Shown here one piece after another: positions 8,451 to 38,990 of a DNA stretch of 64,000 bases. Both the position numbers and the translations under genes were made by a program. Each line of letters starts with the position of its first letter. Position 1 is the stretch's first letter. Below the pieces are notes generated by a model. That model saw nothing but the letters and a program-made list of their open reading frames with translations, made no database searches and was not told the origin of the DNA. Source of the DNA: Rhodothermaceae bacterium (GTDB lineage: Bacteria; Bacteroidota; Rhodothermia; Rhodothermales; Bin80); NCBI GenBank assembly GCA_009841335.1, contig VXLY01000082.1, positions 86,380 through 150,379 of the forward strand, given 5' to 3'.

Positions 8451-10904
8451 TCATTCTGAGTTATGTAACCGGAGGAACGCCGAAACAGTTGCCAACTCTC
8501 CGGCCTCCCTAGGTTTATGCAGTGGATAGTAGTCGTAATTCAGAAAAGCCGGGATGTGAAGATCATAGTAACGACTCATTGGATTACCACTTTGCCCACC
8601 TGCGTATATACCGACGCCGCTGGGAGGATCGGTATCAAAGTCCACTATCACCCGCCAACTTGCACTATGTGTTACCGTTATCCCATCTCCTGGTCCTAGT
8701 GTTTCGTCGTACCCGGGGTAGCTATATGGACCACGCCACAACACACTCAACGCTTCATTTTGTGTGAGATGCCTAAAAATCACCTGATGATGCGTACTCC
8801 AGCTCCAATCATTCCCATACTGGACTTGTAGCATATCTGCTGCTTCTTCAAGTGCCAAGGCCATAAGCATCGGCGCATCTTCGACTTCAGTCGTTCTCTG
8901 AATATCAAGCCATGGAGAACCCGTCTCCAGAATTGTCACCAGTACTGTCTCAGTGGGGTAAGGGATACCCAGGAAAGGTGATTCATCCCACGTTAGCCGT
9001 TTAAGGGCCTCTAGGTACTCATGCAACGCAAGTGGCCCCGTTGTCTCTCCGACCGCCTTACCATCCCATTCAATGAGCGCAGCCCTGACCGCTTCACCTG
9101 CTGGCGTCAGTGCCCGCACGGAATCCAGCGGCGGCACAAAAGCGTCATATTGGCCAACATGAAAATCCGCTTGGTACTCCTTCATATTGTCTACCGTATG
9201 CCGCTCCCTGCCAGCAAGCAATGCGTCGATGCGTAATGATCGATATGCTGGCGGCCAATTGTGGTCTACATAGTAAGGATAGTCTGGTGTCGTCGGCTGT
9301 TGATTCGTTGAAGTGAGATATCCACGTATAGGGTTTGTAGCATACGGCATCTCCTCAAATGGAACTTGACCCACCCACGCTGTACCACTAGTGCTACCAT
9401 CAAGAAGCCCCACCCCATCTCCCGAAGCGCGGATCGGCAATTTTCCTGCAACGCGAATCCCAATTTCCCCAGTGGTGTCGGCATACAGTACATTCATGGC
9501 TGGCGAGTGCCAGTGCCTTAGGGCGCTATCAAACTGGGCTGCGTTTTCAGCACGATTCATTTCCCAAAGTGCAGTCATTCCGTTGTTCTTCTCATGTGCC
9601 ACCCATCGTATAGCTACAGCCGCAGTTGAATCCATAATGACTGGACCGATATCCGACAGTACCAGAGTATCTATAACACGAGCAGCATTTTTCACGTAAA
9701 TCGTATCCGGCTGCATCTTTAGGGAACGCCATCCCCCATCAAACCGGTAGCTGCTTCGATCTTCGTTTAATTGCAAGAGGTAGTGATCAATTGCATCTAG
9801 GCCTGAGTTTGTATAGGCCCAGGCCACATGATCATTGAAAGCCTCAATCGGCAAGGGCGCCCCCGGTGCCAACACGCCATAAGTGTTCATGGAGGGCGTT
9901 ACGAGATGTACTTCATACCATATTGAGGGGAGCGAGAGCGCCAGATGCATGTCACCGGCAAGTATGGCTGAACCAGTCGCAGAACGATCACGTGTGACTG
10001 CCCAATTGTTTGACCCCTTGGAGGGTTGATAGCCTTCCAAGCCATGTTTCCTTAACGTCTTGTGCACATTGGTCAATAAGACCAATGCATCCGATGAATG
10101 CACCGGTGATTGATCCGAATTCACGGAGACTGTCGATTGTCCGATTTCTGCTGGAATGATCGGCTTGTAACGCGTCGCATGGCGCGGGTACAACTTGGCG
10201 TATTCATCAGCCCCCAGTCGCTCCCTGGCAATCCCGTATGCCGCCTCCTCGGAATTAAATGAGAGGTCGTAATTGAAATACTGCATCAGGAGTACAGTAT
10301 GCATAGGCGTATACGGCTCAGGTGCGTAATCAAAGAGTTTGAATTCCAGCGGCCATTCGGCGTAGGGTAGCTCACTCAGATAAGCGTTAACGCCTTCGGC
10401 ATACCAGGTCATTATTTCGTAATCAAGGCCTCCCTGTTCAGCAAATGCAGCCATAATCTGTTTGGCTGCTCCATTCATCCCGAGAGAGCGCAGAAATCTA
10501 TCCGCATCTAGTGAAGCCGGACCGAAGATTTCTGAAAGCCGCCCTGCTGCAACACGACTAATGAAATCCATCTGAAAAAGCCGATCCTGTGCAGTCACAT
10601 ACCCAAGTGCAAGGATAGCATCCCTGTCTTCTTTGGCAAAAATATGAGGAACCCCCCGTTCATCCCGCTCTACAGTCACAGGAGCGGAAAGTGTGGGAAT
10701 AACAACTTCGTCATGCGCAGCGTGCTCGGCTATACGTGCATTGTGATACAGTCCACGGACAGGGTCAAGGAGATTGACCAAGGGTGCAATACCACTCGGT
10801 GCATAATGCAGTCCCCAAAGCAGCGCAGCAGTCAGAATCGCATGCAGCGCAAAGCTCAGCAATACCTTACTATTAGCGTTTGATCCCATAAAATACCGTT
10901 TCAT
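8451..10904 (-). CDS. penicillin acylase family Ntn-hydrolase (possibly acyl-homoserine-lactone/beta-lactam acylase)
   Basis: 817 aa with a signal/TM start and the autoprocessing nucleophile motif KGSNNWAV. The overall size is typical of the penicillin amidase family. Confidence 0.85.
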   Translation of the reverse strand: MKRYFMGSNANSKVLLSFALHAILTAALLWGLHYAPSGIAPLVNLLDPVRGLYHNARIAEHAAHDEVVIPTLSAPVTVERDERGVPHIFAKEDRDAILALGYVTAQDRLFQMDFISRVAAGRLSEIFGPASLDADRFLRSLGMNGAAKQIMAAFAEQGGLDYEIMTWYAEGVNAYLSELPYAEWPLEFKLFDYAPEPYTPMHTVLLMQYFNYDLSFNSEEAAYGIARERLGADEYAKLYPRHATRYKPIIPAEIGQSTVSVNSDQSPVHSSDALVLLTNVHKTLRKHGLEGYQPSKGSNNWAVTRDRSATGSAILAGDMHLALSLPSIWYEVHLVTPSMNTYGVLAPGAPLPIEAFNDHVAWAYTNSGLDAIDHYLLQLNEDRSSYRFDGGWRSLKMQPDTIYVKNAARVIDTLVLSDIGPVIMDSTAAVAIRWVAHEKNNGMTALWEMNRAENAAQFDSALRHWHSPAMNVLYADTTGEIGIRVAGKLPIRASGDGVGLLDGSTSGTAWVGQVPFEEMPYATNPIRGYLTSTNQQPTTPDYPYYVDHNWPPAYRSLRIDALLAGRERHTVDNMKEYQADFHVGQYDAFVPPLDSVRALTPAGEAVRAALIEWDGKAVGETTGPLALHEYLEALKRLTWDESPFLGIPYPTETVLVTILETGSPWLDIQRTTEVEDAPMLMALALEEAADMLQVQYGNDWSWSTHHQVIFRHLTQNEALSVLWRGPYSYPGYDETLGPGDGITVTHSASWRVIVDFDTDPPSGVGIYAGGQSGNPMSRYYDLHIPAFLNYDYYPLHKPREAGELATVSAFLRLHNSE

Positions 10905-10940
10905 TCCTGGATCGCCTCATCCACTGAGACGAATCGTCTC

Positions 10941-11729
10941 CTATCCCTCAGAGTCCATTTTTGTCTCAAATACAGGGACAACCTCATTCCTGATCAATTC
11001 ATCCACGACGGCTGAGTAGTCTTTCGCCCCGCGGGAATTCATATTATTGTCAAATACCGTCTTTCCACCATGGCATTCAACCGCAACCGATGCACAAGTG
11101 CGGACTACGGTGTCCATTACAAGCCTCCCATGCTCCTTCCGCATATAATTGGCATACTGACGATGCACCTTCTTGCGGCCATGTACATTGGTCAACAGGA
11201 ACATCAATCTCTTCAGACCCGGATTCAATCTTCCCTGGACTGCACGCGCCGACTGCCAAGTTTGCTCCGCACCATGAACTGACTGAAGCTCAGGCGTGAC
11301 GGGAATCATTAATGTATCTGCTGCCACAAGAGCATTCAAGACGTAGCTTGAGAGAGCAGCGGCCGTATCCAAAATAATTACGTCATAAATATCCTGGCCA
11401 CGGAGTGCCTCCTTAACCAAAAACAGGTCAATCGTACTGGTTAATTTCTTCTCACGCGTACGCATACCCTCAGAAGAGGGGAGTAAATGAAACGAGGGAA
11501 GCGGGACGGTCTCCAACTGGGCCAGGCTAGTATCAACATCAAATAAGCGAAGAGACGTATCCACCACACTATTCGTATCCACACCCATCATCCGTGTCAG
11601 GAATCCCTGTGGATCAAGATCAATAAGGAGTGTCTTGTATCCAATTAATCCGAATACGGCCCCGATGTGTAACGAGGTTGCTGTCTTGCCAGTACCTCCC
11701 TTATGATTACCGATAGTAATTACTTCCAT
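10941..11729 (-). CDS. ParA/MinD-family ATPase (orphan, no adjacent ParB)
   Basis: Deviant Walker A NHKGGTGKTATS, then LLIDLDPQG and IILDTAA. Confidence 0.85.
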   Translation of the reverse strand: MEVITIGNHKGGTGKTATSLHIGAVFGLIGYKTLLIDLDPQGFLTRMMGVDTNSVVDTSLRLFDVDTSLAQLETVPLPSFHLLPSSEGMRTREKKLTSTIDLFLVKEALRGQDIYDVIILDTAAALSSYVLNALVAADTLMIPVTPELQSVHGAEQTWQSARAVQGRLNPGLKRLMFLLTNVHGRKKVHRQYANYMRKEHGRLVMDTVVRTCASVAVECHGGKTVFDNNMNSRGAKDYSAVVDELIRNEVVPVFETKMDSEG

Positions 11730-11808
11730 TAATCAATTGTACTGTTTCTGGGTATCAGTTGGACATATGCCGAACCAAAAACGTTAAATCTAGCTCGGCA
11801 TTCGACCC

Positions 11809-12402
11809 ATGCATATTAATACTGATTTTGTTCTGGCATCCCAGTCTCCACGAAGGCGAAAACTTCTTCGTCAAATGGGAATATCCTTTTTTTGTATCCC
11901 GCCAAATGTGGATGAAACTGCTGAACCCGTCCGCGGGCCCAGAAGATTGGTCGAAAGTCTGGCGCTCAAAAAAGCTACGTCCGTAGTGGGCAGGAAACCT
12001 AGTGCTCTCGTCCTCGGTGCAGACACGGTCGTAGCATACCGGGGACTCATTCTCGGTAAACCAAGTGGAGCCGTTGAGGCTGCCGCAATGCTTCGCCAAC
12101 TGAGTGCGTCTACCCATACTGTGTATAGTGGAATAGCTCTGATTCACGCGGATTCGGATCGAAAAGTTGCCGATGTGGAGTCTACCGAGGTTACCTTCGG
12201 ACGTTTGAGTGAAACTGAAATTTCGAACTACATCAAAACTGGCTCCCCGTTGGACAAAGCAGGAGGGTATGGGATCCAGGACGACATGGGGGCTATGTTT
12301 GTAAAACGGATCAACGGAGATTTCTACAATGTGGTCGGTCTTCCGATTCGGAGGCTGTATACACTGCTGAAAAAACACTTCAGCGATCTGATTGAGTTCT
12401 AA
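11809..12402 (+). CDS. maf: Maf-like nucleoside triphosphate pyrophosphatase
   Basis: FVLASQSPRRRKLLRQMGI, GADTVV, GKP, KAGGYGIQD. Confidence 0.9.
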   Translation: MHINTDFVLASQSPRRRKLLRQMGISFFCIPPNVDETAEPVRGPRRLVESLALKKATSVVGRKPSALVLGADTVVAYRGLILGKPSGAVEAAAMLRQLSASTHTVYSGIALIHADSDRKVADVESTEVTFGRLSETEISNYIKTGSPLDKAGGYGIQDDMGAMFVKRINGDFYNVVGLPIRRLYTLLKKHFSDLIEF

Positions 12403-12766
12403 GGTCTTGTGCACTTTTTCGGTAAATCACCTCGGCACAGTCCACCGCTCCACCCACAGAGGGGTTTCTTTTCCGAACTGCAACTTCAACATACTCTATT
12501 TGAGTCGACAATTCCCAAACCTGATGGGCAATCATGTAGGCAAGCCGTTCAATTAACCGAAATCTTGTTCCCGTAAATACGCGTTCCACTATACTGTAAA
12601 CATACTCGTAGTTCACGGTTTGACCCAGAGCATCCTCCTCGGCGGCCGCTTCAAAGTTAAAGTTAACACTCACATCCACCTCATATCTCCCTCCAATCTG
12701 CTGCTCCTCGGAGCTCACACCGTGGTGGGCAAAGAATACAGCATTCATCAACCTAATCGTATGCAT
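12380..12766 (-). CDS. folB: dihydroneopterin aldolase
   Basis: 128 aa. MHTIRLMNAVFFAHHGVSSEEQQIGGRYEVDVSV and the C-terminal VAVRKRNP pattern are typical of FolB. Confidence 0.8.
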   Translation of the reverse strand: MHTIRLMNAVFFAHHGVSSEEQQIGGRYEVDVSVNFNFEAAAEEDALGQTVNYEYVYSIVERVFTGTRFRLIERLAYMIAHQVWELSTQIEYVEVAVRKRNPSVGGAVDCAEVIYRKSAQDLRTQSDR

Positions 12767-12770
12767 GTGC

Positions 12771-13685
12771 CTACAGGCCCAAATGATTCAGTAATGCGAT
12801 AGCGGAAGAGTCTAGAGAACCTGCCGTGCGCTGTGCTCGAAGATTAGAAACGTAAGCCGTCGCATACAGACCCAACAATGTATCGCTTCTTCGAGAATGC
12901 TCGCTGAAGAACTCAGCGATTTCTAAGTCTCGCGGTCCAGTGTACCACTTTCGGACGTCACCTGGAGCATTGGCCGGCTCCAGCGGCCAGCTTTGTTCGG
13001 GTTCAAAACCTTTATTGCCAAAATGACATCCTGCACACTGCGTCGGCGTAGCCAGCGCTCTATCATTTGGCAACGTATGGGAAGTAAGAGCTCCTGTACT
13101 GTCGTACGTAGCAAAATCCCAAAATCCATCGGATCGCCGAACCATTGTTGTTGTTTCGACGACTCTAGCACCTCTGAGGTGTTCAGCCTTGATGGCCGTG
13201 CCTACAGCATAACGGATTTTTTCTCCGTTCTCATAGTAGTTCCAGATAGCACTCTGCAATGCGGATTCTGATAAAGTGATTCGCCGCAAGTACTTGGTGA
13301 CAGGACCATGCACTTCGAATGTGATTGCGTTGTCAATGACCCACCGATTGCTGAACTCCGATAGTCTTTCCGGTAGGTTACGTGCATGGTAGTATGTCAT
13401 TTGTACTGCGGTCCGCAGGCTGTCTGGGCTCACGACCCCACCTGATGCCATGGCATTAAGTTCCTGAGCTAATTCCGGCCCGTATGCTCGAAGTACAGCC
13501 AAATCAACATAAAATCTGCCCCCTCGCTCATTTAGCAAGCCAGTTTCAAAGGGATCTTCACTCGTATAGCTGCCAAAGTAAAACCGCAACATTCGCTGTG
13601 CACTCTCTCCCTCCAAAGTTACTTCGAGCTGCTCCGCCGAAGAACAGGCGGCCATCAACAAAATCAGAGCGACTACGCGCATCAA
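12771..13685 (-). CDS. periplasmic lipoprotein with one c-type heme motif, family unknown
   Basis: Signal/lipobox MMRVVALILLMAACSS and a single CxxCH site (TQCAGCHFGNKG). Confidence 0.55.
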   Translation of the reverse strand: MMRVVALILLMAACSSAEQLEVTLEGESAQRMLRFYFGSYTSEDPFETGLLNERGGRFYVDLAVLRAYGPELAQELNAMASGGVVSPDSLRTAVQMTYYHARNLPERLSEFSNRWVIDNAITFEVHGPVTKYLRRITLSESALQSAIWNYYENGEKIRYAVGTAIKAEHLRGARVVETTTMVRRSDGFWDFATYDSTGALTSHTLPNDRALATPTQCAGCHFGNKGFEPEQSWPLEPANAPGDVRKWYTGPRDLEIAEFFSEHSRRSDTLLGLYATAYVSNLRAQRTAGSLDSSAIALLNHLGL

Positions 13686-16512: not shown

Positions 16513-17474
16513 CTGAATATGTGATCGGAGTGGATGTTGGCGGCACGCGCATAAAGGCGGGGGCCGTGCTACGGGATGGTACACTCATGGCGGAGCGTGC
16601 ACGTTCATCGGGGTTCGCGTTGACAGCTGAGGCCCTAGAGGCGGCTGTGATTGAAGAAATTTCTCGAATTCAATCCGATACAGGATATGCTCCTCTAGGA
16701 GTAGGACTGGGGTTTCCGGGAGCAGTAGATCCAACGCAAGGCGTCATCCTTCTTCCGGGAAAACTTCGTTTGGAAGGATACCCGATCGTGCCAAATATAT
16801 CCGACATCTTGAAGCTGCCTGTAATTGCTGATAACGATGGGCGGCTGTCGATTGTGGCCGAAGCTTGCTACGGGAAAGCACAAGGTTATCGATGGGCTGC
16901 CTCAATCACACTGGGGACCGGCGTTGGCTCGGGTATTATGCTTGACGGGCAGATACTTCGTGATCCTCATTTTCAGTTTGGTACACAAGCAAGTCATATC
17001 GTTCAACAATCAGGCAGTGACCGACTCTGCATTACACGTGCCCGTGGAACAGCCAATATCCTCTGCTCTGCAACAGCCCTGGCCGTCATTGCTCGGGATG
17101 GGTTGATCCGTGGATTACCCTCCGTGCTTAATGAGCGCTATTTTGACGACCCTCACAGCGTAGATTTTGCGGCCGTGATTGATGGGGTCGCCCAGAATGA
17201 TGCCCTGTGCCTGGATGCGCTAAAAACCTGGCAAACCGAACTTTCCTGGTTCCTGGTCAGTGTAGTTCACATGTACGCGCCAGAAATCATCATCCTGAGT
17301 GGTGGTGCGGCTTCAGCTGCACCCTATTTTCTGGACGATGTGCGGAAGCATGTTAATCGACATACTTTCCGGTATCCTCCTGGAGAAGATATCCTGATTG
17401 AGGTTTCCGACATAGCCACCTACAACGTTGTATTGGGAGCAGCTTCGATGGTGTGGGAACAGTCCGAGCACTAG
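16509..17474 (+). CDS. ROK-family sugar kinase
   Basis: VIGVDVGGTRIKAGAV (ATP-binding), ADNDGRL, LGTGVGSG. A 4-nt overlap with the SIS gene suggests an operon. Confidence 0.85.
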   Translation: MTEYVIGVDVGGTRIKAGAVLRDGTLMAERARSSGFALTAEALEAAVIEEISRIQSDTGYAPLGVGLGFPGAVDPTQGVILLPGKLRLEGYPIVPNISDILKLPVIADNDGRLSIVAEACYGKAQGYRWAASITLGTGVGSGIMLDGQILRDPHFQFGTQASHIVQQSGSDRLCITRARGTANILCSATALAVIARDGLIRGLPSVLNERYFDDPHSVDFAAVIDGVAQNDALCLDALKTWQTELSWFLVSVVHMYAPEIIILSGGAASAAPYFLDDVRKHVNRHTFRYPPGEDILIEVSDIATYNVVLGAASMVWEQSEH

Positions 17475-18513
17475 GGTTTACCGATTGTTTTATCATCAGT
17501 AACCCGGGAATATTGAGAGTTGCTTTTGTTGCAATAGCTGACTTGGTACATCTACATCATCAATAGCTTCTTGTAACCAAAGCACTTCATCCATTCCGTT
17601 CGGCAACCAACGCCCTCCCCGTCTGACAATCAGTTCGATAACCGGTATACCTCTATTGCACCAGACGCAAAAAACAGAGCATGGCTATCATGCCTGTTTT
17701 TGACTTTCGGCAGTTTGGGATGGCCTGTGTCTCCTATCATTAATACAAATATGCTGGCTTTGCACCAATTCCTCTATTCATGTACATGCTTGAGTTGTCG
17801 TTCTGGGCTCAATGGATCTGGAATTCGCCCGCTGCCACACCGACCAATCCCCCCTCGTTAGGATTTGATCATAACGGTCGTGAATCAAATTGGCAGGCAG
17901 TACATCCCCGTCCCTGACATACTTGATAATTCCTGTGGTCTACGGTGATACGTTCGCAGGAACAGACTAGTCCCTGCCGGAATCGGCGGGGCCTTCACAA
18001 AACAAACCTTGCAATGTGAATCCAATTGTAACCCTATCGGCAAGGGCAAGGATTTGTTTATACCCCCTCTAAGGCGTTCCTTCGTTAGACTCGGATTCTT
18101 AAACAATTGTCAGAGATTCCAATAGATTGTCACTCCTAACCTTCCAACCCAGAACCAATAAGGATCGGAGTAGATCACGAACATGGAAGCAAGTGCAGTG
18201 GTAGCAAAAGAAGTGAGTAGTATATTTTGAATGGGAGAAAACTTCGCTTCTGGATCATAAACGTACGGAGTTCAGCGCGAGATACGAGAGCACAAGTTAT
18301 TCCACAAGCATATCCCGAATCATATCTCAACAAGCCACTCCCCAGTCCACAATCCCTACGCCTTCGTCGTCGTCGAAGAGATCTACACGACCCATACGCA
18401 GGAATTTGCGGGTTGCCGTGAATTTCGAAACAGATTTCCCTGAACTGCTTAGAATGAACGCGAAGCCCGCGATCCTCCCGATATAAGTATGGAGTGATTG
18501 CATCTGATTAGCA

Positions 18514-20022
18514 ATGCGTGTATTACTTGACACTAACATATTAATCCATCGAGAATCGCGGACAGTCGTACGGGATGATATCGGGAGACTTTTCCGCTGG
18601 CTCGACCAACTCAATTACAAAAAGATCATTCACCCAAATTCAGTCAGCGAAATCGAGAGGCACTCCGACCCGAAGGTAGTGTACACCTTCCATCGGAAGC
18701 TAAGCAGTTACCGTATGCTAAAAACTACTGCGCCAGACACTCAGGGAATTGCGTCTCTCCGAGAAGGAGACAAAACCGAAAACGATAGGATTGACACGTC
18801 TATGCTTGCTGAGCTTGCTTCCGACCGTGTCGATTTACTAATTACCGAAGATCGCGGGATTCATTCAAAAGCCACGATTATAGGCCTTGATAGTCGCGTA
18901 TTCACAATTGACGGGTTCCTTGAAAAAGTGACCGCTGAAAACCCTAAACTGGCAGAATATGGGGTTCTTTCTGTTAAGACAAAGCTGTTCGGACACATTG
19001 ACGTTCAGCAAAGGTTCTTTGATTCATTCAGGGAAGATTACCCAAACTTTGACGGCTGGTTCAATCGTAAGGCCGACGAAACAGCGTACGTGTGCCAATC
19101 AGACTCTGGCGAGATAGTTGCATTTTTGTATATAAAGCGGGAGCAGGAAGGCGAGGATTACAGTGACATTATTCCGCCATTCCAGTCTGATCAACGACTG
19201 AAAATCGGCACTTTGAAAGTAGTCTCAAACGGGTATAAACTCGGAGAGCGTTTTCTAAAAATCGTATTCGACAACGCCCTCTTACTTCGCGTTTCCGAGA
19301 TCTATGTAACCGTGTTCAACAAAACTGCCGACCAATTCCGCCTGATCAGGTTTCTGGAAGACTGGGGCTTTATACTGTATGGCAGCAAGGGGAACAGTCA
19401 AGAGTGCGTCTACGTCCGGGACTTTCGACCTAGATTCGATACAAGCGACCCTCGAAAAACATATCCGTACATTTCAAATTCAACCCGGGCATTCATCGTA
19501 CCTATTTACCCTAAGTATCACACAGAACTCTTGCCAGATTCAATTCTCCAAACTGAATCACCGCAGGATTACTCTGACAATAAACCAAATCGCAATGCCA
19601 TAAGTAAGGTATATGTATCTCGCTCTGTCGAGCGGGATCTAAGTACCGGGGACATTATTGTTTTCTATCGGACGAAGTGGGGCGGTCCGGCATTCTACAC
19701 GTCCGTCGCAACCACAATTGGCATTGTGCAGGACGTGAAAACTACGATTCCGCACGAAAAAGCTTTTTTGGAAATATGCCGAAAACGAAGTGTGTTCACG
19801 GATGCCCAGTTACTTGAACAATGGAACTATGATCCTAGCAACCGACCTTTCACGGTTAACTTTCTATCTGTGTATTCATTGCCAAAGCGGCCAAATCTGA
19901 AGGAATTGATGGAAGAAGGCGTCATTAACGAGGCACCTAGAGGATTTGAACAACTTAGTGCTCGATCGTTCCAGCGATTACTTACTATTTCGAATGCCGA
20001 CACGCATTTTGTTGTCGCTTAA
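18514..20022 (+). CDS. three-domain protein: N-terminal PIN-like nuclease + central GNAT-like acetyltransferase fold + C-terminal PUA/ASCH-like domain
   Basis: aa 1-140: MRVLLDTNILIHRE..DTSMLAEL..LITEDRG, the acidic PIN pattern. aa ~150-300: AFLYIKRE..LKIGTLKVVSNGYKLGERFLKIVFDNA..IYVTVF..FLEDWGF, which is GNAT-like. aa ~315-470: RAFIVPIYPKYHTELL..ISKVYVSR..LSTGDIIVFYRT..TTIGIVQDV, a beta-barrel pattern resembling the downstream ASCH protein. Domain calls are by eye only. Confidence 0.6.
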   Translation: MRVLLDTNILIHRESRTVVRDDIGRLFRWLDQLNYKKIIHPNSVSEIERHSDPKVVYTFHRKLSSYRMLKTTAPDTQGIASLREGDKTENDRIDTSMLAELASDRVDLLITEDRGIHSKATIIGLDSRVFTIDGFLEKVTAENPKLAEYGVLSVKTKLFGHIDVQQRFFDSFREDYPNFDGWFNRKADETAYVCQSDSGEIVAFLYIKREQEGEDYSDIIPPFQSDQRLKIGTLKVVSNGYKLGERFLKIVFDNALLLRVSEIYVTVFNKTADQFRLIRFLEDWGFILYGSKGNSQECVYVRDFRPRFDTSDPRKTYPYISNSTRAFIVPIYPKYHTELLPDSILQTESPQDYSDNKPNRNAISKVYVSRSVERDLSTGDIIVFYRTKWGGPAFYTSVATTIGIVQDVKTTIPHEKAFLEICRKRSVFTDAQLLEQWNYDPSNRPFTVNFLSVYSLPKRPNLKELMEEGVINEAPRGFEQLSARSFQRLLTISNADTHFVVA

Positions 20023-20371
20023 GCCGCGTTTCGCTGAAGCTATTTTGGCGGGAGAAAAGAGGTTTGAATATCGACGCTCGATCTTTCGACGGCAAGATAT
20101 TGACACCGTAGTAATTTATGCTTCTACGCCGATATGTAAAGTAGTCGGAGAATTCTCAATCAAACAAGTGCTTTCATTGGACCTTGAAGCACTTTGGGAG
20201 GAAACTCGTGGAGGGGCGGCGATCGATAGACATTATTTCGATCAGTATTTCAAAGGACGATCGTCTGGATACGCTCTGGAGGTGAAAGAAGTGACGCGTT
20301 ATGAGTTGCCGTTATGTCTCCGTCTACAATTTAAGATGAAACGTCCCCCTCAATCGTTTTGCTATCTATAA
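19994..20371 (+). CDS. ASCH (PUA-like) domain protein
   Basis: LLSLKPRFAEAILAGEKRFEYRRSIFRRQDIDTVVIYASTPICKVVGEFSIKQV is the canonical ASCH N-terminal pattern. The ATG at 19994 overlaps the upstream ORF by 29 nt; the longest ORF starts at 19946. Confidence 0.7.
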   Translation: MPTRILLSLKPRFAEAILAGEKRFEYRRSIFRRQDIDTVVIYASTPICKVVGEFSIKQVLSLDLEALWEETRGGAAIDRHYFDQYFKGRSSGYALEVKEVTRYELPLCLRLQFKMKRPPQSFCYL

Positions 20372-20423
20372 CTGAGTTGGGATATTCCATTGTTGGGGAT
20401 CAATTTGGGGAATCCCAGTTTAC

Positions 20424-20431
20424 TAATTTAT
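20424..20431. repeat. target-site duplication (left copy) TAATTTAT
   Basis: Identical 8-mer directly outside both inverted repeats (20424-20431 and 25001-25008). Confidence 0.85.
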
Positions 20432-20466
20432 GGGAATTATAGGGCTAAGTGCCGAAAAAAGTTGGG
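20432..20466 (+). repeat. left terminal inverted repeat (IRL)
   Basis: See the mobile element entry. An extra subterminal copy of AAGTGCCGAAA lies at 20503-20513. Confidence 0.85.
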
Positions 20467-20523
20467 TATTTCAGATGTTTAATTTTTTATTTTTTTATAA
20501 TAAAGTGCCGAAAGACAGATACG

Positions 20524-21477
20524 ATGAAAAAACAAAGAACAGGCCCAGGGAAATCATACAGAAAAGGCATCTCTTGGATCAAACTCATGAAGATGTTCCC
20601 GGATGATAAAACCGCAGAAAAATGGTTCGCTAAACAGCGTTGGGGAAATGAACCTGCCTGTCCTCATTGCGGAAGCACCAACGTCCAGACGGGAGCCGCT
20701 CACCGGACTATGCCTTACAGGTGCAGGGAAAAAGGATGCAGTAAGCGGTTCAGTGTGCGCATAGGAACCGTCATGGAACGTAGCAAATTGGGGTATCAGG
20801 TATGGGCCATAGCCATCTACATCATGAGTACAGGTGTCAAGGGCGTTTCCAGCATGAAACTTCATCGTGACTTGGGCATCGCACAGTCAACCGCTTGGCA
20901 TCTGGCTCACAGGATCAGAAAAACATGGGACACAAAGACCGAGCCGTTTTCTGGCCCGGTTGAAGTAGACGAAACCTATGTAGGAGGAAAAGAAAAAAAC
21001 AAGCACTTTAACAAGGGACTCCGCGCTGGACGCGGCACCGTAGGCAAGACCGCCGTAGTTGGTGCAAAAGACCGTGCAACCAATCAAGTACAGGCAAAGG
21101 TAGTGTCAGACACTACCGCACAGACGCTCACAGGCTTCGTATACAGCACCACGCGCGAAGAGGCAAAAATATACACCGATGACGCAAAAGCATACCAGGC
21201 GTTACGTAGAGCAGCCCATGATACCGTAAAGCATTCTTCCGGACAATACGTAAGAGGAGACGTGCATATCAACGGTATGGAATCTCTTTGGGCTTTGCTG
21301 AAACGGGGCTACTATGGTACGTATCATCACATGTCCCCCAAACACCTTCAACGTTACGTGGATGAGTTTGTCGGTCGGCACAATGCCCGTCACCTGGATA
21401 CCCTGCAACAACTGGAACAAACGGCCAAAGGGCTAGATGGGAAAAGGCTTACGTATAAAGAGCTGGTGGCGGGGTAG
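20524..21477 (+). CDS. IS1595-family (ISXO2-like) transposase
   Basis: N-terminal zinc ribbon CPHCGS..YRCREKGCSKRFSVRIGTVMERSKL, then VEVDETYVGGKEKNKH and a DDE-type core (YTDDAKAY...INGMESLWALLKRG..GTYHHMS.KHLQRYV.EF..RHN). The ATG at 20524 follows IRL; the longest ORF (GTG at 20449) begins inside the IR. Confidence 0.9.
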   Translation: MKKQRTGPGKSYRKGISWIKLMKMFPDDKTAEKWFAKQRWGNEPACPHCGSTNVQTGAAHRTMPYRCREKGCSKRFSVRIGTVMERSKLGYQVWAIAIYIMSTGVKGVSSMKLHRDLGIAQSTAWHLAHRIRKTWDTKTEPFSGPVEVDETYVGGKEKNKHFNKGLRAGRGTVGKTAVVGAKDRATNQVQAKVVSDTTAQTLTGFVYSTTREEAKIYTDDAKAYQALRRAAHDTVKHSSGQYVRGDVHINGMESLWALLKRGYYGTYHHMSPKHLQRYVDEFVGRHNARHLDTLQQLEQTAKGLDGKRLTYKELVAG

Positions 21478-21486
21478 GGGTGGAAA

Positions 21487-22272
21487 TTATGCGCCTATCT
21501 TACTCTCCATTTCCTGCAATAACTGCATTCCAGAATTTAGTGATGGCACCATTGTTTTGCCATCTACATCTGAGAGTCTAGTTAAGGCATTACTGTCAAT
21601 TTCAGATTTATTATGGAATACCAAAATAGTATCAAAGTTCACGTTCTTTTTGATAAGATAATGTAGTTTTAGTGCAGTAATGTTAGCCTTGTCACTATTG
21701 AGAATGCCAAACAGGAACAGATGATTGGCATCCTTTCCCCTAAATCTGTAATCAACTGAATAAGCTCGGGATTCTTGTATTTCAGGGGCGCAGTAATTAA
21801 TTTCTACATGATTCTTATTGATCTTCTTTAAGATGAACTTCCTTAGATCATTGTAGAATGTATTTCTTGATCGTGACTGCTTTTGGATTGCGAGATTATA
21901 TATCCTAGTGATTGCACGACCGTACTGGAAGAGAGCATGTGCTAAATTCTCTATTTGTGAATTTATGAATAACTCTCCCTTGTCTTGGCAAACTTGTTCT
22001 TCACCCAATATCTGATCAATAAGCAAAATACGATTGTTGGTAAGAAATCTATCAAGATCACGTTCGTAGCTTATTCGCATAAATGTGTCGCCCTTGTCAG
22101 ATAGACGTATCCCCTCTTGTGTATTTGATAAATAAATGGGGTACTGATCTCCATCGGGAAACCCAAAGTCCGTTTCTAACATGAGTTCTCCATCAATACG
22201 TTTCTCTACACGAATTGAGGCACATATTTGCTCACATAATTGTCGTTTTAAAATTTCAGGAATCAGTTCCAT
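21487..22272 (-). CDS. hypothetical protein, DUF1828/DUF1829-like (passenger gene)
   Basis: The N-terminal LMLETDFGFPDGDQYPIYLSNTQEGIRLSDKGDTFMRI resembles the DUF1828 pattern (..TPF.d..D.I.IY....g.i.lSDdG.T). The assignment is from memory and not searched. Its start overlaps the upstream ORF by 17 nt. Confidence 0.45.
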   Translation of the reverse strand: MELIPEILKRQLCEQICASIRVEKRIDGELMLETDFGFPDGDQYPIYLSNTQEGIRLSDKGDTFMRISYERDLDRFLTNNRILLIDQILGEEQVCQDKGELFINSQIENLAHALFQYGRAITRIYNLAIQKQSRSRNTFYNDLRKFILKKINKNHVEINYCAPEIQESRAYSVDYRFRGKDANHLFLFGILNSDKANITALKLHYLIKKNVNFDTILVFHNKSEIDSNALTRLSDVDGKTMVPSLNSGMQLLQEMESKIGA

Positions 22273-22768
22273 CGAATAGACTACCCATATAGTGTATTGG
22301 ATTGAATCTTGGCAGATTAAAATCTTCTAACAGACACAAAAAAGCCCCATGAAGTGAGTTGTAACGGATAGTTTCTTTGGCAAAATATTCCGGTTTCCTC
22401 CGTGCAACGATAGCTTCCTCCGTAGCCTTATGAATATGAGGTTTGTATTTAATGATTCCACGGGTATCTTTGTGTATGTGATTTGCTCCGTTATACCGAG
22501 CCAATGTTAACTTTGCCTTGTCTTTGGGTAAATATATGATTCCACAGGAATAATTATTCTCATCATGGATAGATCTGCGTTGATAGACTTCGAACAGGTA
22601 CTCTGGTCGGTCTTTAGGAGCTCCTCTTACATTATAGGTGCGCTTCATGTGGGCATAGTTTTGCCTTCGTGTCCAAGGAGCCCTTGGATTTTCTACAACC
22701 TTCGGGAGATTCCAAAGTCTCTGTATCTCCGTATCAGTGTATCTCAAATCCATGGACCTCATCCACAC
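22256..22768 (-). CDS. hypothetical protein, 165-170 aa (passenger gene)
   Basis: ORF with His-rich motifs YNGANHIHKDTRGIIKYKPHIHKATEE. Alternative ATG starts lie at 22762 and 22753. It is translationally coupled to 21487..22272. Confidence 0.5.
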   Translation of the reverse strand: MWMRSMDLRYTDTEIQRLWNLPKVVENPRAPWTRRQNYAHMKRTYNVRGAPKDRPEYLFEVYQRRSIHDENNYSCGIIYLPKDKAKLTLARYNGANHIHKDTRGIIKYKPHIHKATEEAIVARRKPEYFAKETIRYNSLHGAFLCLLEDFNLPRFNPIHYMGSLFDGTDS

Positions 22769-22946
22769 CTACCGAAGATGATTATGCACATTGCATTTGC
22801 AACCTCCAATGTACGCACATCTACGTAATAAACAGTAACGAGTCAGGTCTCGATACTGATGTTGTGTTTTGTGTTTAGGTTACGTCGTCTGCTGGTTCTT
22901 CGACCGTCAGGTCTCCGCTACACTTGGGGCACCTGGTGGCTTGCTT

Positions 22947-23189
22947 TTAGATTATCTCTAGGCAGTATTTGCATTTATTGAATCCGCCGTCCGCCACTTT
23001 TCTTTTGTTCAATTCAACGTGATCGGGCTTTACAATCAGGGCAATAACAAGACCAATTACGGTTAGAAAAAAACCAATAAAGAACCAACCGATGCCATCC
23101 CGTCCCTTGTTTTCAGCAATCGCCGCACAGAGTATCCCAAAGACCACTGGTATCAGGATGATAACCAATAGACAGCCTGCCGCTTCCAT
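22947..23189 (-). CDS. small two-TM membrane protein with truncated C-terminal zinc ribbon
   Basis: MEAAGCLLVIILIPVVFGILCAAI..GWFFIGFFLTVIGLVIALIV..CKYCLEII then TAA. The same frame continues KQATRCPKCSGDLTVEEPADDVT to the TAA at 22875-22877, which would complete a CxxC..CxxC ribbon. Confidence 0.5.
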   Translation of the reverse strand: MEAAGCLLVIILIPVVFGILCAAIAENKGRDGIGWFFIGFFLTVIGLVIALIVKPDHVELNKRKVADGGFNKCKYCLEII

Positions 23190-23203
23190 TAGTAACTAGA
23201 TGA

Positions 23204-23458
23204 CTATTCGCACCCTGAATTGTCATAGGCCTCAGACGCGGCTAGCCACTTCATTCTATTGGCATATGTGTCTATCCTCACGTAGATGTTCAATAATTCA
23301 GTCTTGCGATCATAGAGTATAGAACACCGCTCTAACCAAGACATGCTATCTGGTTTATACCGCACACCATTCAATAGAAGGGATGTCTTTCGTAGTAACC
23401 GCGACGCTCGCGTGAACGTTCCGACATCATCTTTATTCATTCCACCTGCAACATTCAC
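23204..23458 (-). CDS. hypothetical small protein (78-84 aa)
   Basis: The ORF's GTG start overlaps the TAG stop of the upstream ORF by 1 nt. An alternative ATG lies at 23440. Confidence 0.4.
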   Translation of the reverse strand: MNVAGGMNKDDVGTFTRASRLLRKTSLLLNGVRYKPDSMSWLERCSILYDRKTELLNIYVRIDTYANRMKWLAASEAYDNSGCE

Positions 23459-23676
23459 TATTTTGGCTTTCTCTTCAACCTATAATGTATGCTTTGGCCC
23501 GCTTCGCTTCTAATCTCGTAGTCCCATCTGGGATGTGTCATAGTATCTACTGGGTTCCAAATATATTTAGGGCCATCTTCGGTGTTTTGGATTATGTCTA
23601 TTGCCTCATTCCACGTAGGAGTTTCGACTGCCGGGCCTATTTGCTTGCCGCTAGCATCCAATAGTTTGAACTTCAT
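23458..23676 (-). CDS. hypothetical small protein (72 aa)
   Basis: ATG-initiated ORF MKFKLLDASGKQIG.., first gene of a same-strand run 23676->22875. Confidence 0.4.
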   Translation of the reverse strand: MKFKLLDASGKQIGPAVETPTWNEAIDIIQNTEDGPKYIWNPVDTMTHPRWDYEIRSEAGQSIHYRLKRKPK

Positions 23677-24020
23677 CTTGTAAACCCGTCCGGGCGGTTT
23701 GATTAAGAATACTCAACTGAATTGCAAATCCGTGTGTCTATACACTAATACCAAAAAAGTTCATAAATACACTTTCAAGAATCAAAAACAAGTTGTATAT
23801 TATGAGCGCATTTACCGCGAAGAAGCCCGACATGTCGGGTTGATCGCTGAATAAAACAGCCAGGAACAAACAGGGATTAGCTATCCATGTTGGCAAATAG
23901 GCGGAACCTCTCACAGCCGTGCCCATCCGGGCACAGGGCTTCTCAGATGGTAAATGCACAGCCCGACACCTTCGCGGGCTTCATCCATATCAAACCAAAT
24001 GAGTAAAGGCTCACAATAGG

Positions 24021-24533
24021 ATGCGCAATTTTTTCGTAGTCGTTTTCTCGCTTCTCATTTTCTCGGGATGCACCTCCGTCAATCAAACTGTACTGATGCC
24101 CAACCTGGCTCCGGTCTATCCGGAAATGGTTCAAATCTTCCTTCCCGGAGATTCTTTACCTCCGCATGATCGGGTTGCAATTTTGGCCGGATCCGGCGCA
24201 GATAACTGGTCAAATCGAACTCAACTCTTAGACCACCTCCGTCGCAGAGCCGGTGAACTGGGGGCCAACGGAGTTATTCTTGGTCAAGTAGAAGAATCCT
24301 CTTCCGGCGAAAAGATAGTAGGATATTTAACGGGCTTTGGATCCAGCAGAAAACAAGATGCTATTGCAATATTGATACATTCTACTGTTGAGCAAGAGAA
24401 AATAGCGTCAAGCTGTGAATCTCTAAAAAGCAATATGGACAATGCTTTTCAGGCATACGAAAGACAGAAGAACAATACTAACAGAGAAAGGTGGCAACGC
24501 GCTTCGAGGAAGTACCATGAGGAATGCGGATAA
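24021..24533 (+). CDS. lipoprotein, function unknown
   Basis: Signal/lipobox MRNFFVVVFSLLIFSGCTS. The C-terminal Cys-bounded helical tail is SSCESLKSNMDNAFQAYERQKNNTNRERWQRASRKYHEECG. Confidence 0.6.
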   Translation: MRNFFVVVFSLLIFSGCTSVNQTVLMPNLAPVYPEMVQIFLPGDSLPPHDRVAILAGSGADNWSNRTQLLDHLRRRAGELGANGVILGQVEESSSGEKIVGYLTGFGSSRKQDAIAILIHSTVEQEKIASSCESLKSNMDNAFQAYERQKNNTNRERWQRASRKYHEECG

Positions 24534-24731
24534 ATGAAAAATCTTCTCCTTATGCTTGCCACCATGACAGTTCTTTTGTTCGGTGGTTGCGATTCAGTTT
24601 TCGGGCCGGACTGCCAAGAACTCTACGACAGGATGGAAGCTGCTTGGGATCGGTACTTGGAGAATGAAAACCATTCCAATCGCAAAGCTTGGGCCGATGC
24701 TCGTGATCGGTATTACAAGCATTGTGATTAA
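24534..24731 (+). CDS. small lipoprotein, function unknown
   Basis: MKNLLLMLATMTVLLFGGCDS lipobox. The body CQELYDRMEAAWDRYLENENHSNRKAWADARDRYYKHCD resembles the tail of the preceding lipoprotein. Its start abuts the upstream stop (TAAATG). Confidence 0.55.
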   Translation: MKNLLLMLATMTVLLFGGCDSVFGPDCQELYDRMEAAWDRYLENENHSNRKAWADARDRYYKHCD

Positions 24732-24776
24732 TGAAATAGGATTTCCTATATTAAACACTATGATCAACCCAAACCG

Positions 24777-24935
24777 ATGCCTCAACCAAAGCCTCCTGCA
24801 CCCAAAAAGGAACCTGCCAAGCGTGGGCGACCAGTCAAGAATGACATCATGAAGTTGCAGAGATCCATTCCTGCAACGCCGGAAAAACTGGCAAAGGCTA
24901 TCCTGACCACACCTCCCCGCAAGTCCAAGCCCTGA
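24777..24935 (+). CDS. possible 52-aa basic protein with AT-hook-like KRGRP motif
   Basis: Hand translation gives MPQPKPPAPKKEPAKRGRPVKNDIMKLQRSIPATPEKLAKAILTTPPRKSKP. It is below the ORF-track cut-off and lies just inside IRR. Confidence 0.25.
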   Translation: MPQPKPPAPKKEPAKRGRPVKNDIMKLQRSIPATPEKLAKAILTTPPRKSKP

Positions 24936-24964
24936 AAAATCAGACTGGATTAAATCTTGCGAGA

Positions 24965-25000
24965 CCCCCAACTTTTTCGGCACTTAGCCCTATAATTCCC
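24965..25000 (-). repeat. right terminal inverted repeat (IRR)
   Basis: The reverse complement matches IRL (see the mobile element entry). Confidence 0.85.
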
Positions 25001-25008
25001 TAATTTAT
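25001..25008. repeat. target-site duplication (right copy) TAATTTAT
   Basis: Identical to 20424-20431. Confidence 0.85.
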
Positions 25009-25076: not shown

Positions 25077-26552
25077 TCAGCCTTCCCTATTTCCTTCATT
25101 TCTGGGATTCAACACCTCCCTGACTCGATCCTGCCACCTTGTTAATTCTTGGATTTGAGCCCCACCTAGATTCCCCATGGGTTCCATACTATCCCTTAGT
25201 TCGTAGCTGAACACTTGGTCCAAGGTTACCTGACGTCGCTCCCTATGCACTAACTGCCGTGCCCGACAATAATCTTCCCACCGCTCTATTCCGACTTCAT
25301 CCAAAACCTCTGGAAAATTTCTTGCAATGTATCTGAAAATCAGAGGCTCAACGCGTCGATCATTTGATCGGATCGTACGCAAATCAAAATTTGGGCCCTC
25401 CTGCAGAACCTGGTACATCAGAAGTTCATCCTCACCAGAAAAGAAGCCATCGTAAATCGCCTCATCTGGATCCAGCGGTCGGGAATACCGAAGTCTTTTT
25501 TCAGCTGCCTCGAATTCGAGAAACCGATGAAGCGCATGTTGCCGCTCACGGGCAGCATACTCTTGAAGCATTTCGTGGCGCGCTTGTACTTCGGCTTCAC
25601 TCAATTGCATTTTTGCAAGAATATCGTCAATTGACAATCCAGGTGAAACCAATTCCGGCACGTTTGACCACCCACATACAAACGGAGATTGATTGCACTT
25701 GAACGACCGAATTGAACACCAGGCCTTGCGCCTGTCCTCAGGTATCCACTGCTCAAATGGTTTTAGTAGAGGTCTGGGGTCATTCGACAAATCAAAACCG
25801 TAGGCACTGTTACCATTTCGATAATCCAGAGGAGTCAGCAAGGTCGCGCAATGTCGGCTCGTATCAATTTGCCCGACTACATGAAGTACTGGTTCAGTTG
25901 TGCGAATGATATCCAGCACTGTCTTCTTGAAACGTAAGCCCAACGCATACGCCCATAGATCACGAGCCCGTTCACGTACTAGTCTCGCGATGGCTAGCAT
26001 GTGAGCTACATCTGCCACCGCATCGTGAGATGATTCCGATGACCGACTATCCAGGTTTGCTTCCGACAGAAATTCTAGTTGAAAGGACGGCTTCCCGCTA
26101 CTCTTTTTCGGCCAGCGTTTAAGTGCTTCAGGTCTCAAAAGAAATGCTGCCCGCATTAGCTCCAGTGTGTCCCAATACGTGTTTCCATGTTTCCAAGCCC
26201 AGGCATACGGATCCCGCAGGTTACGATAGAACAGCATCCTGGTCATCTCATGATCGAAGCCCATGCCGTTGTATGCCACACTGCACGTACCTCTCTTGCT
26301 CAATTCAGCATGAATTAATCTGGCAAACTCACTTTCCGGTAATCCCTCTCTGTGAGCTTGCATCGGCATTATCCCATGAACACTGACCGCACCCGGTCCA
26401 ATAGGACAATCCAGCCCCGGCTTACACTTTAACTGAATTGGAGGCGCAAGCTCAACCAGTTCTTCATCCGTTCTCACCCCGCCAAACTGTACGATGCGAT
26501 CTCGGCGCACATCCTTCCCCCAAGTTTCATAGTCATACCAGAAAAACTCCAT
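25077..26552 (-). CDS. sbcB: exodeoxyribonuclease I
   Basis: FFWYDYETWGKDVRRDRIVQFGGVRTD, HGIMP, YNGMGFDHEMTRMLFYRNLRDPYAWAW, SHDAVADV and FRYIARNFPE are colinear with E. coli SbcB as I remember it. Confidence 0.9.
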   Translation of the reverse strand: MEFFWYDYETWGKDVRRDRIVQFGGVRTDEELVELAPPIQLKCKPGLDCPIGPGAVSVHGIMPMQAHREGLPESEFARLIHAELSKRGTCSVAYNGMGFDHEMTRMLFYRNLRDPYAWAWKHGNTYWDTLELMRAAFLLRPEALKRWPKKSSGKPSFQLEFLSEANLDSRSSESSHDAVADVAHMLAIARLVRERARDLWAYALGLRFKKTVLDIIRTTEPVLHVVGQIDTSRHCATLLTPLDYRNGNSAYGFDLSNDPRPLLKPFEQWIPEDRRKAWCSIRSFKCNQSPFVCGWSNVPELVSPGLSIDDILAKMQLSEAEVQARHEMLQEYAARERQHALHRFLEFEAAEKRLRYSRPLDPDEAIYDGFFSGEDELLMYQVLQEGPNFDLRTIRSNDRRVEPLIFRYIARNFPEVLDEVGIERWEDYCRARQLVHRERRQVTLDQVFSYELRDSMEPMGNLGGAQIQELTRWQDRVREVLNPRNEGNREG

Positions 26553-34670: not shown

Positions 34671-34706
34671 AGACCAGGGAAAGCGTATGCGCCGAGGAGT
34701 GTGTTG

Positions 34707-34779
34707 AGCGGGAAACGAGACTCGAACTCGCGACCTTCTGCATGGCAAGCAGATGCTCTACCAACTGAGCTATTCCCGC
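34707..34779 (-). tRNA. tRNA-Gly (anticodon GCC)
   Basis: The reverse complement is GCGGGAATAGCTCAGTTGGTAGAGCATCTGCTTGCCATGCAGAAGGTCGCGAGTTCGAGTCTCGTTTCCCGCT, 73 nt. It forms a full cloverleaf with a 7-bp acceptor stem, anticodon loop TTGCCAT and T-loop GTTCGAGTC. CCA is not encoded. Confidence 0.95.
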
Positions 34780-38869: not shown

Positions 38870-38990
38870 CGCTCATCTGTCCCCGCATAACACGAGGCAG
38901 GAAGTGGCACCTTTCACGCAAGGCGTCCAAACCTTGCAGGGGTTGCCAGGGTTTCACAGGGCCTGAACCCTCCACCCTTCTTGATGAGAC
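38870..38990 (-). promoter_or_regulatory. SAM-I (S-box) riboswitch aptamer upstream of metY-metX
   Basis: The minus strand reads CUCAUCAAGAAGGGUGGAGGGUUCAGGCCCUGUGAAACCCUGGCAACC..GCAAGG..CCUUGC..GGUGCCACUUCCUGC..GACAGAUGAG. This is the conserved S-box core, with P1 closing CUCAUC/GAUGAG. Confidence 0.9.

Follow-up and report, generated by a model that had tools for sequence, protein, structure and literature searches.

Insertion sequences (ISs) that carry passenger genes were defined as transporter ISs (tISs) in the founding paper of the IS1595 family (Siguier, Gagnevin & Chandler 2009, as cited in PMC3129680), and the concept is documented for this family also in the TnCentral preprint (10.1101/2021.05.26.445724). 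A comparable organization was reported by Furuta, Abe & Kobayashi (2010; PMC2853133), who described transposon-like restriction-modification (R-M) units with long inverted repeats (IRs) and an 8-bp target duplication, one of which has a degenerate COG3677 transposase-like gene. The stretch analyzed here (hereafter the window) comprises 64,000 nucleotides of contig VXLY01000082.1 from an uncultured, sponge-associated Rhodothermaceae bacterium. At positions 20432-25000 of the window lies a 4,569-bp element with one pair of ends and one transposase, which we consider very probably (at a rough probability of 0.8) to be a tIS of the IS1595 family and thus a member of a kind already defined. Its passenger genes include a two-gene operon, coding for a DUF6978-like and a DUF1828 protein, that might constitute a captured anti-phage defense or exclusion module.

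The features of the IS1595 family present in the element are the DDE_Tnp_IS1595 domain, the zinc ribbon, the predicted DDE-K residues, 35-nt IRs, and an 8-bp duplication, to which are added, as in a tIS, passenger genes unrelated to transposition within a single pair of ends and alongside a single transposase gene (tnp). A composite transposon, by comparison, is not indicated, there being one tnp and one IR pair. The backbone, in which IRL and IRR are the left and right IRs, is laid out as follows:

20424-20431, no strand: left copy of the target-site duplication, TAATTTAT, 8 bp, abutting IRL
20432-20466, plus strand: IRL, GGGAATTATAGGGCTAAGTGCCGAAAAAAGTTGGG, 35 nt
20503-20513, plus strand: AAGTGCCGAAA, a subterminal copy, in direct orientation, of the inner IR motif, 11 nt before the start of tnp
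20524-21477, plus strand: tnp, IS1595-family DDE transposase with an N-terminal zinc ribbon, 317 aa
24777-24935, plus strand: orfX, 52-aa basic protein (…KRGRPVKNDIM…IPATPEKLAKAIL…), directly inside IRR
24966-25000, minus strand: IRR, 35 nt
25001-25008, no strand: right copy of the target-site duplication, TAATTTAT, 8 bp, abutting IRR

A preliminary description of this DNA had already pointed to near-perfect IRs of about 35 bp with an 8-bp duplication, and alignment, the uniqueness of a 28-mer shared by the arms, and the occurrence of TAATTTAT at both of them bear this out; its coordinates hold for the left arm, whereas the right arm starts at 24966 and not at 24965. In a gapped alignment, IRL and IRR share 28 identical nucleotides, followed by a 1-nt indel in an A-run (A6 versus A5) and then GTTGGG, so that the arms are identical at 34 of 35 positions; the duplication is exact, and the ends read GGGAATTATA. 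Within the window the 28-mer has exactly two occurrences, one per strand, and none of 100 dinucleotide-preserving shuffles contained it. Neither an exact and three-mismatch scan, nor a local-alignment scan, nor blastn of the element found an IRR-like sequence between 20467 and 24965 or elsewhere in the window, and searching the window with the element by tblastn and blastn recovered no second tnp and no other copy. Between tnp and the right end lie eight plausible nontransposase open reading frames (ORFs), of which the minus strand has five and the plus strand three, at least seven having been noted before, and the passenger DNA within the element ends amounts to about 3.3 kb. The greater A+T richness of this region, earlier judged by eye, is likewise apparent on computation: the GC content of the cargo (21478-24965) is 0.429, against 0.503 for the transposase gene and 0.500 for the window, with 0.505 in the right flank, 0.460 in the left flank (17250-20423), and the lowest value inside the element, 0.366, in the DUF1828 gene.

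The assignment of the transposase, as first proposed for 20524-21477, is upheld by a match over the full DDE_Tnp_IS1595 domain (PF12762, 8e-42, positions 3-153 of 153), accompanied by matches to Zn_ribbon_IS1595 (PF12760, 1e-6) and to the NCBIfam model NF033547 (transpos_IS1595, 4.6e-55). In an alignment of 19 sequences (the window transposase and 18 relatives), the zinc-ribbon cysteines C46, C49, C67, and C72 are invariant, as are D219, E253, and K260, while D149 is nearly so; D149 (in EVDETY), D219 (in YTDD), E253 (in NGMESxW), and K260 are each invariant or at least 90% conserved. We infer that D149, D219, E253, and K260 are the catalytic DDE-K residues. Because these residues and the zinc-ribbon cysteines are conserved and all present in the window protein, the tnp gene is apparently intact.

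A subterminal copy of AAGTGCCGAAA at 20503-20513 had been noted as a possible transposase-binding site. The copy is there, and the motif occurs exactly three times in the window, always within the element (in both IRs and at this position); the proposed role receives modest support. In relatives, a further copy of the inner IR motif lies 71-80 nt in from the left end and 10-40 nt ahead of the tnp start, and the repeat covaries with the IR of its own element (9 of 9 positions in the window, 8 of 9 each in the related loci L005, L052, and L069, and more weakly in L054), while in a control comparing the IR of one element with the subterminal region of another only 7% of pairs reach 8 of 9. This modestly favors the repeat as a predicted second binding site, for which a role in autoregulation is plausible.

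The position of orfX is what best defines the architecture. In some cargo-less ISs of 1.34-1.35 kb (the L052, L060, and L069 type), which come from a Thermodesulfobacteriota metagenome-assembled genome (MAG), orfX directly follows tnp, and its core starts 147-190 nt from the right end in these as in the window element, L005, L006, L013, L014, L054, and the 1775-bp elements described below. Because differences among five elements fall mostly at third codon positions (4, 2, and 18 by codon position between the window and L006), orfX is a real gene under purifying selection; its dN/dS is about 0.04-0.1, with a dN of 0.10 against a dS above 1.7, and above 2 between the window and L006. It has no Pfam match even at E values up to 10 and few called homologs. 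Because the conserved partner of tnp in relatives without cargo is the IRR-proximal orfX, the ancestral IS layout is IRL-tnp-orfX-IRR, with the passenger DNA lying inside it, between tnp and orfX. We found no description in the literature of orfX as the right edge of a cargo slot.

Like the tISs of the IS1595 family, then, the window element has one zinc-ribbon DDE transposase, one IR pair, an 8-bp duplication, and passenger genes; unlike those described, it carries a pair resembling the candidate defense system PDC-M24 together with lipoprotein genes, resides in an uncultured sponge-associated bacterium, and belongs to a lineage in which a conserved orfX beside IRR marks the right edge of the slot. 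Two groups, “ISNwi1+” and “ISPna2+,” are classed as tISs in ISfinder, and ends of the ISNwi1 type read GGnnatTAT, a consensus that the GGGAATTATA and GGGAATTAT ends of the window element would fit; a search of the literature on ISNwi1 found nothing relevant. With the R-M units of Furuta and colleagues, the element shares defense-type genes inside an IR-bounded unit inserted with an 8-bp duplication; it differs from them in that its transposase is intact and clearly of the IS1595 type and in that its own cargo has no R-M system, though sister elements carry methyltransferases.

Related elements, gathered by protein and locus searches, have ends that start with GGGAATTATA or GGGAGTTATA, and their clade spans Rhodothermales, Longimicrobiales, Hyphomicrobiales, Novosphingobium, and metagenomes. 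Short relatives measure 1337-1353 bp in Thermodesulfobacteriota and 1329-1367 bp in Bryobacterales and one metagenome contig. In at least 10 related elements, most of them with an 8-bp duplication of their own, the slot is occupied by R-M systems, GmrSD-type nucleases, HicA or Panacea modules, or nested ISs. All those listed here, save the two with nested ISs in the last line, are elements with GGGAATTATA ends:

L006/L007: 4118 bp, duplication ATCTCGTC, secreted GmrSD_C plus Excalibur protein
L013: 3449 bp, duplication CTTTATTA, GmrSD_N plus HNH protein
L054: 4709 bp, duplication AAATTTTG, part of the window cargo in common, tnp broken
L067: 2908 bp, duplication AAAAAAAA, P63C plus SocA/Panacea
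L096: about 3140 bp, duplication TTTCAAAA, Dcm methylase, 259-aa ORF, and Vsr
L014: about 3215 bp, Dcm methylase and 319-aa ORF
L044: 4255 bp, imperfect duplication, N6/N4 methylase and 295-aa ORF
L102: 2423 bp, no evident duplication, D12 methylase and PD-(D/E)XK nuclease
L103: about 2.4 kb, Dam-like methylase, judged by eye
L005, L012: 4295 bp (L005), contig ends at the IRs, HicA toxin and SDH-type protease
L035, L055: 3844 and 4936 bp, nested IS66 and nested IS630 plus IS256, respectively

Duplications of 8 bp were found for more than 10 related elements and average 82% A+T. No cargo begins farther than about 10 nt from the tnp stop, and cargo on the same strand overlaps that stop. The methyltransferase genes of L014, L044, L096, L102, and L103 mostly adjoin a nuclease gene or an ORF of nuclease size. 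The earlier statement that cargo-carrying relatives are uncommon does not apply to this lineage, in which such forms are frequent; the idea that a cargo-bearing unit was inserted as a single block, on the other hand, gains from the single pair of ends, from orfX beside IRR, and from the sister elements with duplications of their own. We found no published description of the strong defense bias of the cargo in this clade.

Comparison of individual elements shows different parts to be shared with different relatives: the window and L005 are 84% identical in tnp and 96% identical over a 187-nt right end, while the window and L054 have in common a 483-nt block of cargo, 83% identical. This mosaic pattern would fit an exchange of cargo by recombination between elements within the conserved tnp and orfX/right-end flanks. 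As for the mechanism as a whole, we propose that the transposase recognizes the two 35-nt terminal IRs and probably also binds the further copy of the inner IR motif that precedes its own start codon at a short distance; that the whole unit would have been inserted once, in the AT-rich spacer between a PDC-M11B-like gene and sbcB, duplicating TAATTTAT; and that the passenger slot, extending from within about 10 nt of the tnp stop to upstream of orfX, would move its contents along with the element, because it lies inside the IRL-tnp-orfX-IRR backbone.

A relative of 63% identity in the Rhodothermales MAG OY760427.1 occurs in two forms, a 1775-bp unit with its own duplications and a unit of about 3701 bp. 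The latter, found at at least 13 loci with 98-99% identity (L016 at 9855-13555, and also L015, L017, L019, L022, L024, L030, L031, L034, L036, L040, and L058 among those listed), has in addition about 650 bp, further IRL-like copies, and a TnpB protein of 416 aa with OrfB_IS605 and Cas12f1-like TNB domains, the stop codon of which is 5 nt from the distal IRR. At least six copies of the whole 3.7-kb unit have flanking 8-bp duplications, and in this genome, therefore, a transposase of the IS1595 type has spread an RNA-guided-nuclease gene that lies flush with the element end; no association of an IS1595-type element with TnpB was found in the literature. Between tnp and orfX, the 1775-bp units have about 490 bp with an apparent C-terminal fragment of a cytosine-5 DNA methyltransferase, recognized by eye (…RLQGFPDSYEI…TGNAVPIPV…, positions 1155-1331 of the L020 element), which would be what survives of a former R-M cargo, its decay having preceded the rise of the element to about 40 copies.

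The cargo of the window element itself consists of the following:

21487-22272, minus strand: 261-aa DUF1828 protein, PDC-M24B-like, second gene of the operon, with Pfam, PADLOC, and PHROG matches
22256-22768, minus strand: divergent DUF6978-like protein of 165-170 aa, of a PDC-M24A-like family, first gene of the operon, assigned through its profile family
22881-23189, minus strand: decayed gene whose product would be a small membrane protein bearing a zinc ribbon at its C terminus, truncated to 80 aa by an in-frame TAA at 22947-22949
23204-23458, minus strand: chimeric 84-aa ORF from an internal deletion, a fusion of two genes intact in L054
23458-23676, minus strand: 72-aa ORF common to the L054 element, 41% identity
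23953-24023, plus strand: 71 nt preceding the lipoprotein gene, with 83% identity to the corresponding position in L005
24021-24533, plus strand: predicted 170-aa lipoprotein, signal ending FSGC, with a C-terminal two-Cys motif
24534-24731, plus strand: predicted 65-aa lipoprotein, signal ending FGGC, with a similar C-terminal two-Cys motif read from the sequence

The two genes of the operon overlap by 17 nt, the called start of the first in public data being an ATG at 22753, which gives 165 aa. The DUF1828 protein matches Pfam DUF1828 (1.2e-16), PADLOC PDC-M24B (PDLC04540, 1.2e-12), and phrog_5059 (2e-25) and is 58% identical to the partner in L089 and 33% identical to that in Pseudomonas phage 5399. 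Its companion matches phrog_27326 (3e-33), and a profile built from it finds 757 cluster representatives; among 52 relatives sampled, 24 match DUF6978 and 24 hits are to PDC-M24A models (19, 3, and 2 across three models). PDC-M24 is one of 145 defense candidates in PADLOC predicted by “guilt-by-embedding” (bioRxiv 10.1101/2024.01.29.577857). As in PDC-M24, the window pair consists of two genes, of which the second matches PDC-M24B; unlike in PDC-M24, the first protein is too divergent to match the PDC-M24A models.

A pair with the identical 17-nt overlap is found in three unrelated metagenome contigs without an IS1595 transposase, where it adjoins HTH and ImmA/IrrE pairs or a large helicase. 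In the temperate Pseudomonas phage 5399 (PQ758389.1, L128 3983-5274), overlapping homologs of the pair directly follow cI and are encoded on its strand, and such a cI-adjacent pair is also found in phages phita81A, 5371, and PACT201, both genes being annotated as hypothetical; a plasmid collection yielded no homolog of the DUF6978-like protein. In lambda, rexAB downstream of cI occupies the classic position of exclusion genes expressed in the lysogen. The phage 5399 homologs parallel this arrangement; the window pair has no sequence relationship to RexAB and, unlike it, rides on a transposon and not in a prophage. Because of its resemblance to PDC-M24, the cI-adjacent position of its phage homologs, and the HTH, ImmA/IrrE, or helicase neighbors, we infer that the pair is a candidate anti-phage defense or exclusion module captured by the element. 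A HEPN or His-Me nuclease activity was also considered for the DUF6978-like protein on account of a conserved RYNGxxHxH…HIH motif, and was set aside as speculation with no tool result behind it. Searches of the literature on DUF1828 and DUF6978 found nothing relevant, and no published description of the pair as mobile cargo was found.

Outside the operon, the product of 22881-23189 is 69% identical over 105 aa to a 107-aa ortholog in L054 and matches phrog_8436 (2e-14), and in the ORF at 23204-23458, 21 N-terminal residues encoded by a 98-aa gene run into 59 C-terminal residues from a 147-aa lipoprotein gene; because of the nonsense codon in the former and the deletion fusion in the latter, part of the window cargo is decaying. 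The 71-nt segment at 23953-24023 is possibly a shared 5′ or promoter region. A two-Cys motif of about 40 aa (C..L...M..A...Y…N…R…Y…C) is common to the window lipoproteins, a 227-aa ORF of L006, and the 147-aa ORF of L054, and neither the lipoproteins nor the motif matched a known family. Scans with Pfam, NCBIfam, and PADLOC identified no recognizable toxin or antitoxin domain in the window cargo, and PDB sequence searches with the cargo proteins were empty. An Rfam scan of the element found no RNA family, and promoter and terminator scans of the element gave sigma-70-type sites at or below the shuffle expectation. Within the cargo, a 41-nt intergenic stretch containing a hairpin (23821-23861) has a counterpart (4 differences) in an unrelated contig of 3.3 kb from the same metagenome (run X1, record 4) and may be a small dispersed repeat. 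The suggestion that the cargo has a selectable or addictive function is plausible, with relatives carrying R-M and toxin-antitoxin genes and the window copy an untested defense candidate.

The insertion is in a 128-nt AT-rich spacer between convergent genes, an ASCH-domain gene ending at 20371 and the exonuclease I gene (sbcB) ending at 25077, and the predicted empty site reads CAGTTTAC-TAATTTAT-CGATCAC. Directly to the left, in a stretch of lower GC content (about 0.46, approximately 17250-20500), two overlapping genes (18514-20371) match PADLOC PDC-M11A (3e-202) and PDC-M11B (6e-45); the former codes for a 502-aa protein with a start that is PIN-like by eye and the latter for a protein of 125-141 aa with a weak ASCH match. 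Because of these matches, the element is taken to have landed at the margin of a small, low-GC locus that is a candidate for defense. Every public contig with these flanks, from several sponge-metagenome samples of one study, has the insertion. The element occupies this site in each of the six contigs whose sbcB is identical, and in none of them does the cargo occur apart from the ends, an arrangement that had been named as one that would refute a mobile unit, along with an IRR after the transposase, which was looked for and not found. Between the window and the L004 copy there is one true single-nucleotide polymorphism (SNP) across the element; a 7-bp length difference in the L004 copy was rejected as an indel, being a run of N at a scaffold gap. 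The element is single-copy, its assembler depth of 63 lying between the flank depths of 50 and 74, with contigs crossing both junctions, and a single insertion is supported. The insertion had also been called recent, yet the element is fixed in all sponge metagenomes sampled, no empty site was found, and some of its cargo has decayed. A low-depth variant contig (run X1, record 5; depth 8.5 versus about 70) agrees with the 3′ portion of sbcB apart from 6 differences (window 25109-25208) and diverges into unrelated sequence before 25109; it may come from a second strain with another arrangement at the locus. Elsewhere in the window, a SAM riboswitch (RF00162, 77.6 bits, 38870-38990, minus strand) and a tRNA-Gly(GCC) gene (34706-34779, minus strand) are ordinary features unconnected with the element.

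Several observations pull in the other direction from a mobile unit with defense cargo. With respect to the pair, the DUF6978-like protein of the window scores below threshold against DUF6978 (18 bits versus a cutoff of 29.6) and itself has no PDC-M24A match; its AlphaFold2 model (pLDDT 74.6) has no significant fold match in the PDB, the best E value being 0.56, and the single-sequence model of the DUF1828 protein is unusable (pLDDT 36.5). The PDC systems are, moreover, untested candidates embedded in BREX, DISARM, or type I R-M loci (bioRxiv 10.1101/2024.01.29.577857). With respect to the backbone, orfX belongs to no known family and is absent or undetectable in the Bryobacterales short elements, L096, L102, and L103, and the subterminal repeat is clear in only four or five of 14 elements. 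With respect to movement, no joint bypassing the element was seen in Logan contigs of four sponge runs, JGI metagenome contigs lack the exact 23-mer predicted for the empty site, no second copy, excision joint, or circle junction was found in Logan contigs, JGI metagenomes, or the sbcB-sharing contigs, and no RNA run holding the element was found.

Two alternatives concern the structure. The genes between the ends might be resident chromosome, flanked by an ordinary 1-kb IS and an unrelated distal solo IRR or end of a miniature inverted-repeat element (MITE); layouts of this sort do exist in the lineage, the 1775-bp unit of OY760427.1 having an internal and a distal IRR that are both used. In the window, the identical 8-bp duplication brackets the full 4,569 bp, the interval 20467-24965 is free of IRR-like sequence, the cargo GC content is 0.43 against 0.50 for the chromosome, and orfX, the partner of tnp in cargo-less relatives, adjoins the distal IRR. 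This last point therefore rules out, for practical purposes, an IS plus a stray end, an explanation that we regard as scarcely credible, and it also makes unlikely a collapsed composite transposon, in which two ISs once flanked the cargo and deletions then took the inner orfX-IRR and the inner IRL-tnp. Such a collapse predicts the same outer layout of IRL-tnp…orfX-IRR, and deletions do occur in the window cargo; yet it requires two precise deletions, which would have to recur independently in at least 10 elements with each cargo starting about 10 nt from the tnp stop or overlapping it, and no partial remnants of inner ISs were seen, so that we judge it highly improbable.

The other two alternatives accept a tIS structure and concern its activity and its cargo. 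The window copy could be an immobile relic that is eroding and is retained as neutral DNA in an intergenic spacer, as its single copy, its fixation at one site in all sampled contigs and runs, the single true SNP relative to L004, the nonsense codon and deletion fusion in the cargo, and the failure to find an empty site would all allow. Set against this are a full-length transposase with all conserved zinc-ribbon and acidic residues, IRs matching at 34 of 35 positions, a perfect duplication, an intact orfX, and intact DUF6978 plus DUF1828 operon and lipoprotein genes; we lean away from a dead element while treating it as a real possibility, and the intact parts and the duplication point to a copy that may still be mobile. 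As for the cargo, the selected function could instead be adaptation of the cell surface to a niche, such as a sponge host, through the lipoproteins and the membrane protein, with the pair as a nondefense passenger. The samples are sponge metagenomes, genes for two-Cys lipoproteins recur in the window, L006, and L054 (L005 having a lipoprotein gene without the motif), and the 71-nt upstream segment of the window is also conserved in L005. The lipoproteins, however, match no family, whereas most sister elements have recognizable defense or toxin-antitoxin genes, the pair resembles PDC-M24 and adjoins cI in phages, and the element itself adjoins a PDC-M11-like pair; we therefore consider niche adaptation an unlikely explanation next to a candidate defense function of the pair.

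What is new here is the conserved orfX, the defense-rich slot of the relatives, and a candidate defense pair as cargo. Tn7-like transposons are known for cargo dominated by defense systems that feeds defense islands, and they are large, with multiprotein machinery and specific target sites. The elements described here resemble them in having cargo regions rich in defense systems and differ in being minimal, the window element being a single-transposase unit that inserts into AT-rich sites. tISs are the smallest known vehicles for genes without a role in transposition and are poorly catalogued, and in this clade the slot mostly holds R-M, type IV restriction, toxin-antitoxin, and candidate defense genes. 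The landing of the window element beside another candidate defense system offers a concrete and testable route by which defense islands could accrete, for which the 52-aa orfX accessory gene and the compact DUF6978 plus DUF1828 module provide experimental handles. The TnpB-bearing unit of OY760427.1 is a hint that elements of the IS1595 type may also recruit RNA-guided nucleases. More tentatively, and with a good deal of doubt on our part, the IS1595 lineage may be a dedicated shuttle for defense genes, with a fixed tnp/orfX slot that is refilled by recombination, with the pair as a genuine new anti-phage or exclusion system, and with TnpB among the cargo that it can recruit. If so, the DUF6978 plus DUF1828 pair would be an immune module that the element has in common with temperate Pseudomonas phages, and small tISs would seed and enlarge defense islands in uncultured marine and sponge bacteria.

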